NCBI GenBank assembly: GCA_963624045.1
Contig: CAVFNI010000006.1
Coordinates: 6,166 to 70,165 of the forward strand
Source: Bacteroidaceae bacterium
GTDB taxonomy: Bacteria > Bacillota_I > Bacilli_A > RFN20 > CAG-826
DNA length: 64,000 nt
Reading direction: 5' to 3'
The notes below the pieces were generated by a model. That model did not search any database, was not told the origin of the DNA, and saw only the letters and a list, made by a program, of their open reading frames with translations. The position numbers were made by a program, and so were the translations under genes. Below, piece by piece: positions 5,742 through 57,835 of this stretch. Positions within the stretch are counted from its first letter, which is position 1. Each line of letters starts with the position of its first letter.

Positions 5742-5776
5742 GCCTAAGCCCTCCTTTTCTTTCCCATCCCATTTTT

Positions 5777-5807
5777 AGAAAAAAGGGACCTAGAAGTCTA
5801 AGTCCCT
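5777..5807 (-). terminator. Attenuator-like intrinsic terminator in the 5' leader of the permease-upp operon.
   Basis: Minus strand: AGGGAC-ttagacttctag-GTCCCT followed by TTTTTTCT, about 30 nt before the RBS AAAGGAGGG. A second G-rich/U6 element (GTAGGGGGATTTTTT) lies further upstream and can pair with a distal GTCCCCCT. Confidence 0.45.
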
Positions 5808-6107
5808 GAAATTGATAAATGAGATGAATATTTGGGAAGAAGGAACCCGTAAAGAAGAAAAAATCCCCCTACGTTTGGTAAGAGGTTTCAGCTTCAAGCT
5901 CCGGAGTTCCATTTTTCTTTCCGGAAGAAAACTCTAACAAGGAAAGGGGACGGAAACAATCATTTTTTATAAACGATTTTCGACCTCAAAAATATTTTCC
6001 AAACCTCTTTCCAAAGGAAAGGGGAGGCAAGATGAAAGATGTAACCAAAAATGAAAGTGCTTTCACCACCAAAGGGGGTGGTTTTCTTTTAAAATTAGGC
6101 AGTCGAA

Positions 6108-6173
6108 GTCGTATATGCCGGTAATATGGTCCAGCAGTCTCTACGCCCTCTCCTCAAAACTGGGCACTACGAC
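6108..6173 (+). ncRNA. Purine (guanine-type) riboswitch-like aptamer upstream of the PbuG-like permease.
   Basis: P1 GUCGUA/UACGAC. The P2 loop UAAUAUGGU is identical to pbuE/xpt L2. J2/3 is GUCUCUAC and J3/1 is ...CACUA. P3 has a non-canonical loop. Total 66 nt. Confidence 0.45.
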
Positions 6174-6188
6174 GAAAATCCCTAGGAG

Positions 6189-6214
6189 CGAAACGGCAGC
6201 TCTTTCGGCTTTTT
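6189..6214 (+). terminator. Terminator of the riboswitch expression platform.
   Basis: CGAAA-cggcagctc-TTTCG GC TTTTTG. Confidence 0.4.
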
Positions 6215-6277
6215 GTCTCTCTGACCTTCTTACCCCATTATGCTTCTGACAGCATTCTTCTCATAAGGAGGGTAACC

Positions 6278-7825
6278 ATGGAAGAAGCAATTATGGCCGA
6301 ATCTCCGTCTAATGGAAATGGATCTTGGAGCCCCAAAACTGGTTTCGGGCGCTTTTTAGACCGCTATTTCCACATCTCCGAAAGAGGCTCTAGCATCGTT
6401 AGGGAACTCATCGGTGGTCTCATCATCTTCTTGGCGATGTTTTACATCTTGCCGCTTAATTCCAACATGCTTTCGGGCGACTGGGCCAACATTCTCACCG
6501 GCGTCGACACCGCTTCTAACGTCAAAACGTCTATCGATGGCGTTGTATCGATCCTAATCTATGGCGATGTCTGGGCAACCGTCAGCGAAGTCCGCGCCGC
6601 CATCTTCGCCGCTACCGCCATCAGCGCCGCCGTTACCACCATCTTGATGGGATTCTATGGCAAACTCCCAGTTGGTCTTGCCAGCGGCCTTGGCATCAAT
6701 TCTTTAGTTGCCTACACCGTCATGCTTGGCATGGGCTTTAACCTCGCTCAATCGATGTGCATCGTCTTGCTTGACGGCGTTCTCTTCTTAATCATCAGCC
6801 TTACTCCTTTACGCGCTTGGATTGTCAGAAACATCCCTAAATCGCTTAAATTCGCCATTTCCGCCGGCATTGGCTTCTTCATCGCCTTTATCGGCTTCCA
6901 AAACATCGGCATCATCGTTCCAAGCACCGCGACCGCCGTTACCTTTGGCGATTTTACTAGCCCCGCCGTCATCATGGGCATCGTCGGTGTCGTCATCGTT
7001 TTGGTCCTTTCTTCTTTGCCACAAAATAAGAAATGGTCTTTCTGGGTCTCCAAATTCGCCGTCATCATCAGCATCGTTTTAATGGGCGTCGTCTGCGCTT
7101 CGATGGGTCAAGCTGGCGTCGCTGGCATGCCAACCTTCTACGATTCTAGCTACCACATCAGCGAACTTGGCAACATCGGTAAAATCTTTGGCTGCTGCTT
7201 CTATGGATTCGATGCCTTCGCCAACCCCATGGCCATCGCCTTCACCTTCGCTCTTCTCTTCGTCGATTTCTTCGACACCGCCGGCACCTTAGTCGGCGTT
7301 GAAGCGGGAGCGGGCATGGTCGATGACAATGGCAACATCACCGTCAACGATCGTCCGGCGATGGTCACCGATGCCATCGGCACTTGCTTTGGCGCCGTTT
7401 GCGGCACCACCACCGTCACCTCCTTCGTCGAAAGCACCACCGGCGTCGCCGCTGGGGCGAGGACGGGCTTAGCTGCCGTCGTGACTGGTTTGCTATTCGC
7501 CTTGAGCTTAGCCATCTATCCGGCCCTTGGCATGTTCTCCTCTAGCTCCGTCACAGGGCTAGCGCTCGTCTATGTCGGCGTTTGCATGTTCAAAAACCTC
7601 GAGAAACTCGAATGGCACGACTGGATCGCTGTCGGAAGCGGCTTCTTCACCATCTTGGTGATGACCATCTCCTATAGCATCAGTGATGGCATCGCTTGGG
7701 GCTTTATCTCCTACACCATCATGACTTTGGCCGCTGGCAAATTCAAAAAGAGCGACATCACCGTCGCTTGCTGCTCCGCCGCCTTCTTGGCCATCTATAT
7801 AATGAAGGCTGCGTTAAAGATTTAA
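6278..7825 (+). CDS. Guanine/hypoxanthine permease of the NCS2 AzgA/PbuG type.
   Basis: 515 aa. The N-terminus FGRFLDRYFHISERGSSIVRELIGGLIIFLAMFYIL matches the PbuG/PbuO family. RBS AGGAGG lies 6 nt upstream. Confidence 0.85.
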   Translation: MEEAIMAESPSNGNGSWSPKTGFGRFLDRYFHISERGSSIVRELIGGLIIFLAMFYILPLNSNMLSGDWANILTGVDTASNVKTSIDGVVSILIYGDVWATVSEVRAAIFAATAISAAVTTILMGFYGKLPVGLASGLGINSLVAYTVMLGMGFNLAQSMCIVLLDGVLFLIISLTPLRAWIVRNIPKSLKFAISAGIGFFIAFIGFQNIGIIVPSTATAVTFGDFTSPAVIMGIVGVVIVLVLSSLPQNKKWSFWVSKFAVIISIVLMGVVCASMGQAGVAGMPTFYDSSYHISELGNIGKIFGCCFYGFDAFANPMAIAFTFALLFVDFFDTAGTLVGVEAGAGMVDDNGNITVNDRPAMVTDAIGTCFGAVCGTTTVTSFVESTTGVAAGARTGLAAVVTGLLFALSLAIYPALGMFSSSSVTGLALVYVGVCMFKNLEKLEWHDWIAVGSGFFTILVMTISYSISDGIAWGFISYTIMTLAAGKFKKSDITVACCSAAFLAIYIMKAALKI

Positions 7826-7846: not shown

Positions 7847-7877
7847 GGGGAGAGGATGATATTTCTCTCCCCTTTTT
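7847..7877 (+). terminator. Intrinsic terminator after the permease gene.
   Basis: GGGGAGAG-gatgatattt-CTCTCCCC followed by TTTTT. Confidence 0.75.
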
Positions 7878-7905
7878 GCTAAGATATCGTGAATTGGAGA
7901 GAAGC

Positions 7906-9447
7906 ATGGAAAGAGAAATGATCGTCGTCCTCGATTTCGGAGGGCAATATAACGAATTAATCGCCAGGCGCGTGCGGGATTTATCCGTCTATAGCGAGGT
8001 CTGGCCCTATAACGTCCCTTTAACGAAATTAGAAGACCCACGTATAAAGGGGATCATCTTCACGGGCGGCCCGCGCAGCGTCTATGAAGAGGGCGCCCCC
8101 AGTGTCCATAAAGAAATCTTCGCCCTTGGCAAACCGATTCTAGGCATTTGCTATGGAGCGCAGGAAATGGCTTACCAACTAGGCGGAGAGGTCATTCCCT
8201 GCGAGAAAAAGGAATTCGGATTGACATCTATAAAGAATCTTTGCGCCTCTCCTTTGCTTAAGGATATCCCCCTCACCCATAACGTCTTCATGTCCCATGG
8301 CGACCATGTCGAGAGATTGCCTGATGGATTTAGTGTCATTGCCTCCAGCGAAACGACGAAAAACGCCGCTTTTGCGGACGAAAATAGAAAATTGTACGGT
8401 GTTCAATTCCATCCCGAAGTGGAACATTCCGTCTATGGGAAGCAAATTCTGGCCAATTTCGTCTATGATATCGCCAAATGCAATAAATCATGGCAAATGG
8501 AGGATTATATCAACGAAAGCATCGCCGCCATTCGTCGAAAAGTCGGCGATAATTACGTCCTATGCGCCCTCTCTGGCGGCGTCGATAGCGCAGTCACTGC
8601 CGCCCTTATCGATAAAGCTATCGGCGAGCATCTTATCTGCGTCTTCGTTGACCATGGCTTATTAAGGAAAGATGAAGCCGTCGAAGTTCGGAAGGTCTTT
8701 GGAAAAGAAGGGCGATTCGCATTAGATTTTCGCCCCGTGGACGCTTCCAAGATGTTTTTGAAAGCCCTTGAAGGCGTAAGCGAGCCCGAGGAAAAACGCA
8801 AAATCATCGGCAAAACCTTCATCGATGTTTTTGAAAAGGAAGAAAAGAAGATCACAAAACCCTGTTTTTTGGCCCAAGGAACGATCTACCCCGATCGCAT
8901 CGAATCGGGGCTAGGGATCTCGGCTAAAATCAAATCCCACCATAATGTCGGCGGCTTGCCAAAGAATATCGATTTTTTAGGATTAATAGAGCCTCTCGAC
9001 CATCTATTCAAAGACGAAGTGCGGCGTCTTGGCCTCTCTTTGGGGTTACCTTCTTCCTTGGTCAATCGGCAACCCTTTCCCGGCCCGGGGTTAGGAATTC
9101 GTATCATCGGCGAGGTAACCCCCGAAAAAATCAAAATCGTCCAAGAAGCCGACGCCATCTTCCGCGAGGAAATGGCCAAAGGTGCCTTTGATAAGAACGC
9201 TTCTCAATATTTTGCCGCCCTCTCCAACATGAAAAGCGTCGGGGTCAAAGGGGATTACCGAAGCTATGAATACGCCGTCGTGCTTAGGGCCGTCCAAACC
9301 GATGATTTCATGACCGCCTCGCCCATGGCCCTCCCTTATGACTTCCTAACGAGGGTAAGCGACCGAATCGTCAACGAAGTCGCCGGTGTCAACCGCGTCC
9401 TTTATGATTTCACGAGCAAGCCGCCCGCCACGATCGAATTAGAATGA
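7906..9447 (+). CDS. guaA: GMP synthase (glutamine-hydrolysing).
   Basis: GATase1 domain plus ATP pyrophosphatase PP-loop SGGVDS. Start set at MEREMIVVLDFGGQY. The ORF-track start at 7876 lies inside the upstream terminator. Confidence 0.93.
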   Translation: MEREMIVVLDFGGQYNELIARRVRDLSVYSEVWPYNVPLTKLEDPRIKGIIFTGGPRSVYEEGAPSVHKEIFALGKPILGICYGAQEMAYQLGGEVIPCEKKEFGLTSIKNLCASPLLKDIPLTHNVFMSHGDHVERLPDGFSVIASSETTKNAAFADENRKLYGVQFHPEVEHSVYGKQILANFVYDIAKCNKSWQMEDYINESIAAIRRKVGDNYVLCALSGGVDSAVTAALIDKAIGEHLICVFVDHGLLRKDEAVEVRKVFGKEGRFALDFRPVDASKMFLKALEGVSEPEEKRKIIGKTFIDVFEKEEKKITKPCFLAQGTIYPDRIESGLGISAKIKSHHNVGGLPKNIDFLGLIEPLDHLFKDEVRRLGLSLGLPSSLVNRQPFPGPGLGIRIIGEVTPEKIKIVQEADAIFREEMAKGAFDKNASQYFAALSNMKSVGVKGDYRSYEYAVVLRAVQTDDFMTASPMALPYDFLTRVSDRIVNEVAGVNRVLYDFTSKPPATIELE

Positions 9448-48046: not shown

Positions 48047-48390
48047 GGAGCATCCGGCCCGATAAGCCATGTTCTGTCGAGGGCGAACATTCATCTCAGG
48101 TTTCCCTGGAAGGGTCGTCTTCATTTGGATTTCCCTTCTTCCCCTACCAAATTTGGGTTTCTCGCTTGTGGGGTTTACCGCGTTTCACCTTGTTGTCGCC
48201 AACAAGCTCGTCTCTGTGGCACCTTGGGGAGAATCGTCTACGGGAGACTCCTCTCACGCCGTCACGCGCTCCGGGCGTGCCTAGGCTTATTGATTAACCT
48301 AGCGCAATCACTACATCCGTCGCAGGATGTGCGAGCATGGACTTTCCTCTGGTTTCCCAGCGGTCGCCTGGGCCGGATTAGCCGCTTCGT
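48047..48390 (-). ncRNA. rnpB: RNase P RNA, type B (Bacillus-type).
   Basis: Reverse complement contains AGAGGAAAGUCCAUGCUCGCAC (P4 region, identical to B. subtilis), a P3 hairpin CCCAGgcgaccgCUGGG, ends able to form P1, and the second P4 strand near the 3' end. Lies between the gpsB-like gene and pgsA. Confidence 0.85.
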
Positions 48391-57656: not shown

Positions 57657-57798
57657 TCCTCCTGCTTCAGGAGGTAAAAGAAACGTTTTGGCCTCTCTTA
57701 TCCGGACTTTACCGTTGGCATCGGAATTGCGCCGATTCATGCTTTCGCTTGCGGGCTATACCGCCAGTCGGCGTATCTAACGCCGCCCTGAAGCGAAC
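57657..57798 (-). ncRNA. FMN riboswitch (RFN element) with an RBS-sequestering helix.
   Basis: Minus strand: CGCUUCAGGGCGG.GUUAGAUACGCCGACUGGCGGUAUAGCCCGCAAGCGAAAG ... GCCAACGGUAAAGUCCGGAUAAGAGAGGC. This matches the conserved RFN halves of the B. subtilis ribD leader (GGGGCAGGGUGAAAUUCCCGACCGGCGGUAGUAAAGC / CCGACAGUGAAAGUCUGGAUGGGAGAAGG). It is followed by ACCUCCUG-aag-CAGGAGG, which pairs with the SD. A TATAAT -10 sits just upstream. Confidence 0.8.
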
Positions 57799-57835
57799 AA
57801 ATTATACGCCAATTGCCAACGCAAAAGAAAAGGAA

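Follow-up and report, generated by a model that had tools for sequence, protein, structure and literature searches.

A predicted guanine-I riboswitch in the leader of an operon for a purine permease and GMP synthase in uncultured gut Bacilli

Guanine-I riboswitches, known from the pbuG and xpt-pbuX leaders of Bacillus subtilis, lower the expression of purine uptake and synthesis genes when guanine is plentiful, and a permease together with guaA is a typical target (PMC9295807). In their binding pocket, C74 pairs with guanine or hypoxanthine, while a U at position 74 goes with adenine (PMC10556655). The loops L2 and L3 are held together by the kissing contacts G37-C61, G38-C60, U34.A65, A33.A66 and A35.A64, which make up two tetrads plus the A35.A64 pair (PMC3683926). 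The rest of the scaffold is more permissive: P1 stems of 2 to 9 bp occur in nature, P2 tolerates mismatches and position 24, one of the least conserved core positions, is a non-critical spacer stacked between G72 and A73 (PMC2018637).

We analyzed an element in a 64-kb stretch of DNA (64,000 nt, called the window throughout) that shares with these leaders the three-way junction, an L2 of AAUAUGG docking an L3 of the form CCNNAAA, and the residues U22, A23, G46-C53, U47, U49, C50, U51, A52, A73 and C74. Like them, it has a putative terminator-type expression platform and the pairing of a PbuG-type permease with a gene for guanine-nucleotide synthesis, and it has the C48 of B. subtilis pbuG. Unlike these leaders, the window has no A24, a P1 of 6 bp, two adjacent pyrimidine-pyrimidine mismatches in P3, a weak terminator and no clear antiterminator.

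Other relatives are instructive at single positions. The natural guanine aptamer CA-uraA, to which we liken the element by its description (Mulhbacher & Lafontaine 2007, PMC2018637), likewise lacks A24; its host lineage and downstream gene differ from those of the window. The add riboswitch of Vibrio vulnificus likewise has a non-canonical U31.U39 pair at the top of P2 and pyrimidines at positions 62 and 63 of L3 (U62, U63; PMC3683926), but it has U74 for adenine, keeps A24 and is a translational ON switch, whereas the window has C74 and a terminator. The 2'-dG-I, -II and -III, xanthine-II, guanine-II and 8-oxoguanine riboswitches use the same three-stem scaffold, are found mostly in Firmicutes and mostly act through terminators; the changes that define these specificity variants are all absent from the window.

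Read from its sequence, the element at 6108-6173 is a genuine but ordinary guanine-I riboswitch of RF00167. We consider it very probable that it is a canonical one, placed in the leader of a permease and GMP synthase operon and acting, as predicted, as a termination OFF switch. The window aptamer leaves the understanding of the family unchallenged, and its value is mainly one of annotation: a lineage of uncultured gut Bacilli would control purine uptake and GMP synthesis by a standard guanine riboswitch.

Family match, architecture and covariation

We compared the whole window with all 4227 Rfam families and found a full-length match to RF00167 (Purine) on the forward strand at 6089-6189, covering model positions 1-102 of 102 with a score of 53.9 bits against a gathering score of 37 (E = 2.1e-6). 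A permissive local scan returned no rival Rfam family at the aptamer. All three helices, P1, P2 and P3, are recovered in the MFE fold of the aptamer (Table 1), and the P2 of the window carries a U.U pair (U6122.U6130) on top and one C.A mismatch. The folding z-score, obtained in a thermodynamic test of the aptamer alone, is an unremarkable -0.87; since it is uninformative, the case for the aptamer is carried by covariation.

Table 1. Positions of the aptamer, its parts and the neighboring features in the window
Feature	Position	Strand	Evidence and remarks
Putative -10 box, TAAAAT	6090-6095	+	Clade conservation; inferred
Copy of the P1 5' strand, GUCGAA	6102-6107	+	Sequence comparison; directly 5' of P1
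Guanine-I (purine, RF00167) riboswitch aptamer	6108-6173	+	Rfam, MFE fold and clade covariation; 66 nt
P1, GUCGUA/UACGAC	6108-6113/6168-6173	+	Sequence and Rfam alignment; 6 bp
J1/2	6114-6115	+	Rfam alignment
P2	6116-6122/6130-6136	+	Rfam alignment
L2, AAUAUGG	6123-6129	+	Sequence and Rfam alignment
J2/3, GUCUCUAC	6137-6144	+	Sequence and Rfam alignment
P3, GCCCUCU/ACUGGGC	6145-6151/6159-6165	+	Covariance-model and clade alignments
L3, CCUCAAA	6152-6158	+	Covariance-model and clade alignments; 7 nt
J3/1, A-C	6166-6167	+	Sequence and Rfam alignment; C74 = 6167
Intrinsic-terminator-like hairpin and U-run	6180-6214	+	Folding; core hairpin -8.4 kcal/mol
Shine-Dalgarno AAGGAGGG; ATG of the permease gene	6265-6272; 6278-6280	+	Sequence, ORF list
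AzgA/PbuG-type purine (guanine/hypoxanthine/adenine) permease gene	6278-7825	+	Pfam, PDB relatives; first regulated gene
guaA, glutamine-hydrolysing GMP synthase	7876-9447	+	NCBIfam NF000848, 727 bits; Pfam GATase and GMP_synt_C

A protein search with the permease returned 15 loci from MAGs of uncultured human-gut Bacilli at 70-97% protein identity, 14 of which include upstream DNA (L010 has none). A pattern scan of metagenomes added 12 further loci, giving a total of 18 distinct leader sequences. The RF00167 match is found at the same position in 13 of the 14 orthologous leaders, at 39-61 bits. In the leader of locus L013 (2600-3000), whose permease has 70% identity, a purine aptamer was not found; riboswitch control in this lineage is lost or was never gained, and it is therefore dispensable there.

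We scored a structure composed of the canonical helices, the kissing pseudoknot and the G46-C53 pair. Across the 18 distinct sequences, 90.3% of cells are paired, compared to 36-55% when the partners are slid, and the covariation score is 0.309, compared to 0.138 for shuffles, with none of 500 shuffles reaching the observed value. Double (compensatory) changes occur at nine pairs, including six of the seven pairs of P3 and two in P2; a pair analysis of the first 14 sequences agrees with this result. The five inner pairs of P1 hardly vary, with a single change from U-A to U-G, and consequently covariation supports P1 neither way.

Much of this architecture had been read from the letters in the first-pass annotation. 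Its P1 helix, GUCGUA/UACGAC, is seen in the sequence and in the Rfam alignment, and its L2 motif UAAUAUGGU is present as AAUAUGG flanked by a U.U pair, the same as the Rfam consensus L2 (the L2 of xpt is GAUAUGG). The J2/3 it had given reads as GUCUCUAC at 6137-6144, and the C of J3/1 that it had placed next to P1 is the position-74 equivalent (6167). It had proposed a comparison with RF00167, where the match scores above the gathering score, and a comparison of orthologous leaders, where the P1/P2/P3 architecture is kept with covariation. Folding also recovers the terminator hairpin that it had placed downstream (6180-6208, U-run at 6210-6214). Finally, the gene that it had called a guanine/hypoxanthine permease is of the NCS2/AzgA type, both by Pfam (PF00860 Xan_ur_permease, 78.9 bits) and by its best PDB relatives, the adenine/guanine permeases AZG1 and AZG2 (E about 1e-43).

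The same Rfam comparison places two other RNAs on the reverse strand of the window, a class B RNase P RNA (48058-48375, 222.8 bits) and an FMN riboswitch (57686-57799, 78.3 bits). Neither is unusual, and both are in keeping with a Bacillota genome.

Operon, terminator and predicted switching

No NCBIfam model was found for the permease ORF, and its identity was therefore resolved from the PDB sequence relatives. The guaA gene, which begins 50 nt 3' of the permease gene, is probably part of the same operon. A uracil permease gene and upp lie upstream and are divergent.

In the mechanism that we propose, the 66-nt aptamer would fold as a three-way junction with its L2 and L3 kissing loops docked, and guanine or hypoxanthine would pair with C74 (6167), enclosed by U22, U47 and U51. 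Ligand binding would lock the short P1 helix, and the hairpin and U-run at 6180-6214 would then terminate transcription. Termination would lower purine uptake and GMP synthesis at high guanine, making the element an OFF switch. By analogy with the described guanine-I leaders, from which its direction and mechanism are drawn, a guanine/hypoxanthine-dependent transcription-termination OFF switch is the most likely function.

The terminator-like hairpin consists of CCcuAGGAGC (6180-6189) and GCUCUUucGG (6199-6208) around a 9-nt loop, followed by a C and UUUUU (6210-6214). A consensus terminator scan misses this hairpin because the scan's loop limit is 8 nt. By its folding energy of -8.4 kcal/mol, and with just five U, the terminator is a weak one. 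We found a similar hairpin with a U-rich tail, 1-38 nt past P1, in 17 of the 18 distinct leaders even though their sequences diverge, and the full-leader MFE consists of aptamer plus terminator in most leaders. In the window, the Shine-Dalgarno sequence and the ATG are located more than 50 nt further downstream of the terminator.

Three different searches found no antiterminator above composition-matched shuffles, and two candidates were rejected. The first pairs CUCCU (6150-6154, in the P3 5' strand and L3) with AGGAG (6184-6188, in the terminator 5' arm), and a similar complementarity can be seen by eye in several lineages. Whole-aptamer duplex energies are no better than those of shuffles (fraction at or below the observed value, 0.23-0.98), and a test restricted to the P3 5' strand and L3 against the terminator arm gave p = 0.06-0.98. 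The apparent pairing is composition-driven, arising because a pyrimidine-rich segment faces a purine-rich one. The second candidate pairs the P1 5' strand and its upstream copy with the 5' arm and loop of the terminator (GCGA...CGGC). This fold is the MFE of the nascent transcript in the window, 0.7 kcal/mol better than the P1 state; it is matched by 38% of shuffled downstream segments and is not conserved across lineages.

A further feature of the leader is the segment directly 5' of P1. A hexamer reading TAAAAT, TAGAAT or similar is kept across the clade 2-8 nt 5' of the GUCGA copy and marks the putative -10 box; the promoter scan returned no promoter on the forward strand because there is no -35 match. 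The upstream copy is GUCGAA in window-type leaders; L011-type leaders have GUCGAUAG or GUCGAUGG. The copy could pair with C74-U75-ACGAC (6167-6173) to form an alternative, binding-incompetent helix, which we denote P1*. In the L011 subgroup, the UAG or UGG of the segment extends P1 by way of CUA or CCA, and this extension covaries.

The aptamer could be genuine while its output is something other than a simple terminator/antiterminator OFF switch, either a three-state scheme built on P1* or control by Rho or at translation. Such an output would give a role to the GUCGA directly before P1, which is the same in each of the 18 distinct leaders even though its flanks diverge, and it would sit well with an undetected antiterminator and a weak terminator. 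In a nearest-neighbor model, P1* and P1 differ by no more than 1.4 kcal/mol in 16 of 17 leaders, but near-equal energies are trivial here because the copy is almost identical to the 5' strand of P1, and covariation cannot be scored for P1*, both strands of which are invariant. In leaders of the L011 type, moreover, the putative -10 box is only 2-4 nt from GUCGA, so that the copy may be partly untranscribed, and the hairpin with its U-tail is kept in 17 of the 18 leaders. We judge an output of this other kind to be unlikely, and a functional P1* decoy helix, while possible, to be distinctly doubtful. In work by Reining and colleagues from 2013, the add riboswitch is reported to have three states, among them an apo fold that cannot bind ligand and draws on nucleotides of the 5' leader; the P1* idea for the window clade would be conceptually similar. 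The termination OFF switch remains the reading that we prefer.

Loop-loop docking, junction and ligand class

The first-pass annotation had described a 13-nt P3 loop, UCUCCUCAAAACU, lacking CCGUAAAU, and had considered altered loop-loop docking. The alignments resolve this segment into a 7-bp P3 with two adjacent mismatches (U6149.U6161 and C6150.C6160), closed by the pair U6151-A6159, and a 7-nt L3. The L3 of the window, CCUCAAA, aligns without gaps to the consensus CCGUAAA, from which it departs at positions 62-63 only. The docking residues C60, C61, A64, A65 and A66 are retained in L3, as are A33, U34, A35, G37 and G38 in L2, so that all ten contact residues are present in the window, and the kissing pairs are paired in 100% of cells across the 18 sequences.

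We found that the kissing pair G37-C61 changes to A-U in L011 and L021, a clean natural covariation in a kissing-loop pair, which indicates that canonical docking is under selection in the clade. Judged from these residues and their covariation, the loop-loop interface of the window aptamer is canonical. The altered docking of the earlier reading is not borne out, while its guanine-type (C74) aptamer, its terminator and its PbuG/AzgA-type permease stand.

The compensatory changes mark P3 as a regular helix under selection in this clade, of which the window carries the weakest version. The window is alone among the 18 distinct sequences in having a non-pair (U.U) at the fifth position of P3, where its closest relative, L014, has A-U, and the MFE model retains just 4 bp of the window's P3. 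Together with the complete loss of the aptamer at the orthologous locus L013, these observations are what a decaying or weakened copy would present, one in which adjacent mismatches beside L3 destabilize docking and regulation has become leaky or lost. We consider decay very unlikely, however, as the junction and loop residues, the terminator and the operon are all intact, and the 53.9-bit score exceeds the 39-43 bits of L001, L003 and L007, whose P3 has one mismatch. The C.C mismatch is common to the window and L014 and lies in a column that is unpaired in 5 of the 18 sequences, which argues that mismatches are tolerated there; a single-base assembly or consensus error is also possible. An intact guanine-I aptamer with a weak P3 is the reading that we retain.

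Separate deviations were observed in two other parts of the clade. In the sub-lineage of L001, L003 and L007 (aptamers at about 2838-2903), L3 is shortened from 7 to 5 nt (CCUUG) with loss of A64-A66, L2 is AAGAUGG (U34 to G) and the RF00167 scores are 39-43 bits. From these sequences, the loop-loop interface is genuinely altered in the three loci, unlike that of the window. In the L020 aptamer (1657-1722), G.A stands in place of the first pair of P3 (G54-C72) and the 3' strand of P1 reads UACGGC, which is another tolerated deviation.

The junction of the window is nearly complete. U22 (6114), A23 (6115), G46-C53 (6137/6144), U47 (6138), the run U49, C50, U51 and A52 (6140-6143, with U51 at 6142) and A73 (6166) are all present in the Rfam and clade alignments. 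Across the clade, U22, A23, G46-C53, U47, U49, C50, U51, A52 and C74 are consensus-like and found in 18 of 18 sequences, and A73 in 17 of 18 (G in L020). J2/3 and J3/1 have zero insertions relative to the RF00167 model. Position 48 is a C in the window, as it is in B. subtilis pbuG (PMC2018637). The only junction deviation of the window, missed in the first-pass annotation, is the absence of A24: J1/2 is one nucleotide short (UAUA-U compared to the consensus UAUAAU), and it is so throughout the clade. We do not regard this deletion as a novel variant, as CA-uraA provides a precedent (PMC2018637).

The ligand-contact positions U22, U47, U51 and C74 are present and the junction is free of insertions, which together place the aptamer in the guanine-I type. 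The other classes built on the scaffold are ruled out at their defining positions. An adenine riboswitch is excluded by the C at position 74 (6167), which is found in 18 of 18 clade sequences. The 8-oxoguanine class has lost U47 and goes with an 8-oxoguanine deaminase gene (PMC10556655); the window has a full-length J2/3 with U47 at 6138 and a permease downstream. The 2'-dG-II class has C51 and a two-nucleotide insertion in J3/1, compared to U51 at 6142 and a J3/1 of merely A-C (6166-6167) in the window. Xanthine-II riboswitches combine U51G with insertions in J2/3 and J3/1 (PMC9295807), and guanine-II riboswitches have insertions in both segments; the window retains U51 and has neither insertion. 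By every sequence criterion tested, the aptamer is guanine-I, and its ligand and affinity would be those expected of that class.

That the missing A24 and the weakened P3 shift ligand specificity or affinity within the same family, for example toward hypoxanthine or xanthine or toward a weaker guanine sensor, is highly improbable: a one-nucleotide junction deletion can alter the ligand, as the loss of U47 does in the 8-oxoguanine class (PMC10556655), the A24 deletion is invariant clade-wide and thus selected or at least fixed, and substitution of A24 in xpt abolishes 2-aminopurine binding (PMC2018637), but the natural Clostridium acetobutylicum CA-uraA aptamer without A24 binds 2-aminopurine as well as xpt or better (K_D of 2.78 uM compared to 7.83 uM; PMC2018637), A24 makes no ligand contact and only stacks between G72 and A73, the first-shell nucleotides are all canonical with none of the J2/3 and J3/1 insertions of the variant classes, and a purine permease with guaA is the usual gene set of guanine-I riboswitches.

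For the guanine-I reading, the oddities of the window (no A24, C48, U62-C63, the P2 and P3 mismatches and the U.U on top of P2) are within documented family variation. They add natural cases in which A24 is deleted from the junction, L3 varies at positions 62-63 and the P2 and P3 helices tolerate mismatches, and these could be useful for modeling how much sequence change the purine aptamer tolerates.

Elements upstream of the promoter

A 14-bp palindrome, TGAAAGTGCTTTCA, is located on the forward strand at 6052-6065. It precedes the putative -10 box by about 24 nt and P1 by 56 nt, and it is the only exact site in the 64-kb window. In 17 loci, the exact form TGAAAGNNCTTTCA, with TG, TA or TC at its center, occupies the corresponding site, some 56-67 nt 5' of P1, and is kept while the intergenic DNA around it diverges. 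Variants occur in L017, which has TGAAAGTACTTACA, and in the L011-type subgroup, which retains AAACCGCTTTCA only. From its form and conservation, the palindrome looks like a transcription-factor operator, and as such it would bring the riboswitch promoter under a second level of control. In sequence it resembles a cre/LacI-family operator minus the central CG. A literature search with the palindrome sequence returned nothing bacterial or relevant.

One could combine these elements into a switching scheme particular to the clade, in which the P1* decoy, the missing A24 and the weak terminator together replace an antiterminator and the palindromic operator adds a further input. We hold this scheme to be quite unlikely. 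If it were true, the decoy, formed by the GUCGA copy (6102-6106) at the extreme 5' end of the transcript, would give a binding-incompetent apo state and help to tune the guanine threshold, and the operator at 6052-6065 would be a protein-based second input at the promoter.

Two further features lie in this region. A terminator-like hairpin on the forward strand at 6065-6082, composed of ACCACCAAAGGGGGTGGT followed by TTTCTTTT, directly precedes the putative -10 box and shares base 6065 with the end of the palindrome. Conservation of this hairpin is limited to the closest relative, L014; it may shield the riboswitch promoter from transcription that arrives from upstream. A 30-codon ORF on the forward strand (6032-6124) has a strong Shine-Dalgarno sequence, AGGGGAGG, and runs into the aptamer; we rejected it as a real gene, its start and frame not being conserved in L001 or L002, and it is probably due to chance.

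The divergent uracil permease/upp operon has a leader of its own on the reverse strand (5742-6030, at least 250 nt), in which no Rfam match, PyrR included, was found at E<=10. This leader contains two terminator-like hairpins (5885-5865 and 5807-5784), both with a U-run behind them and both kept in L014, L001 and L002. In the second stem, GGGAC/GTCCC changes to AGGAC/GTCCT, a compensatory change. We regard the upp-operon leader as a candidate pyrimidine-responsive attenuator.
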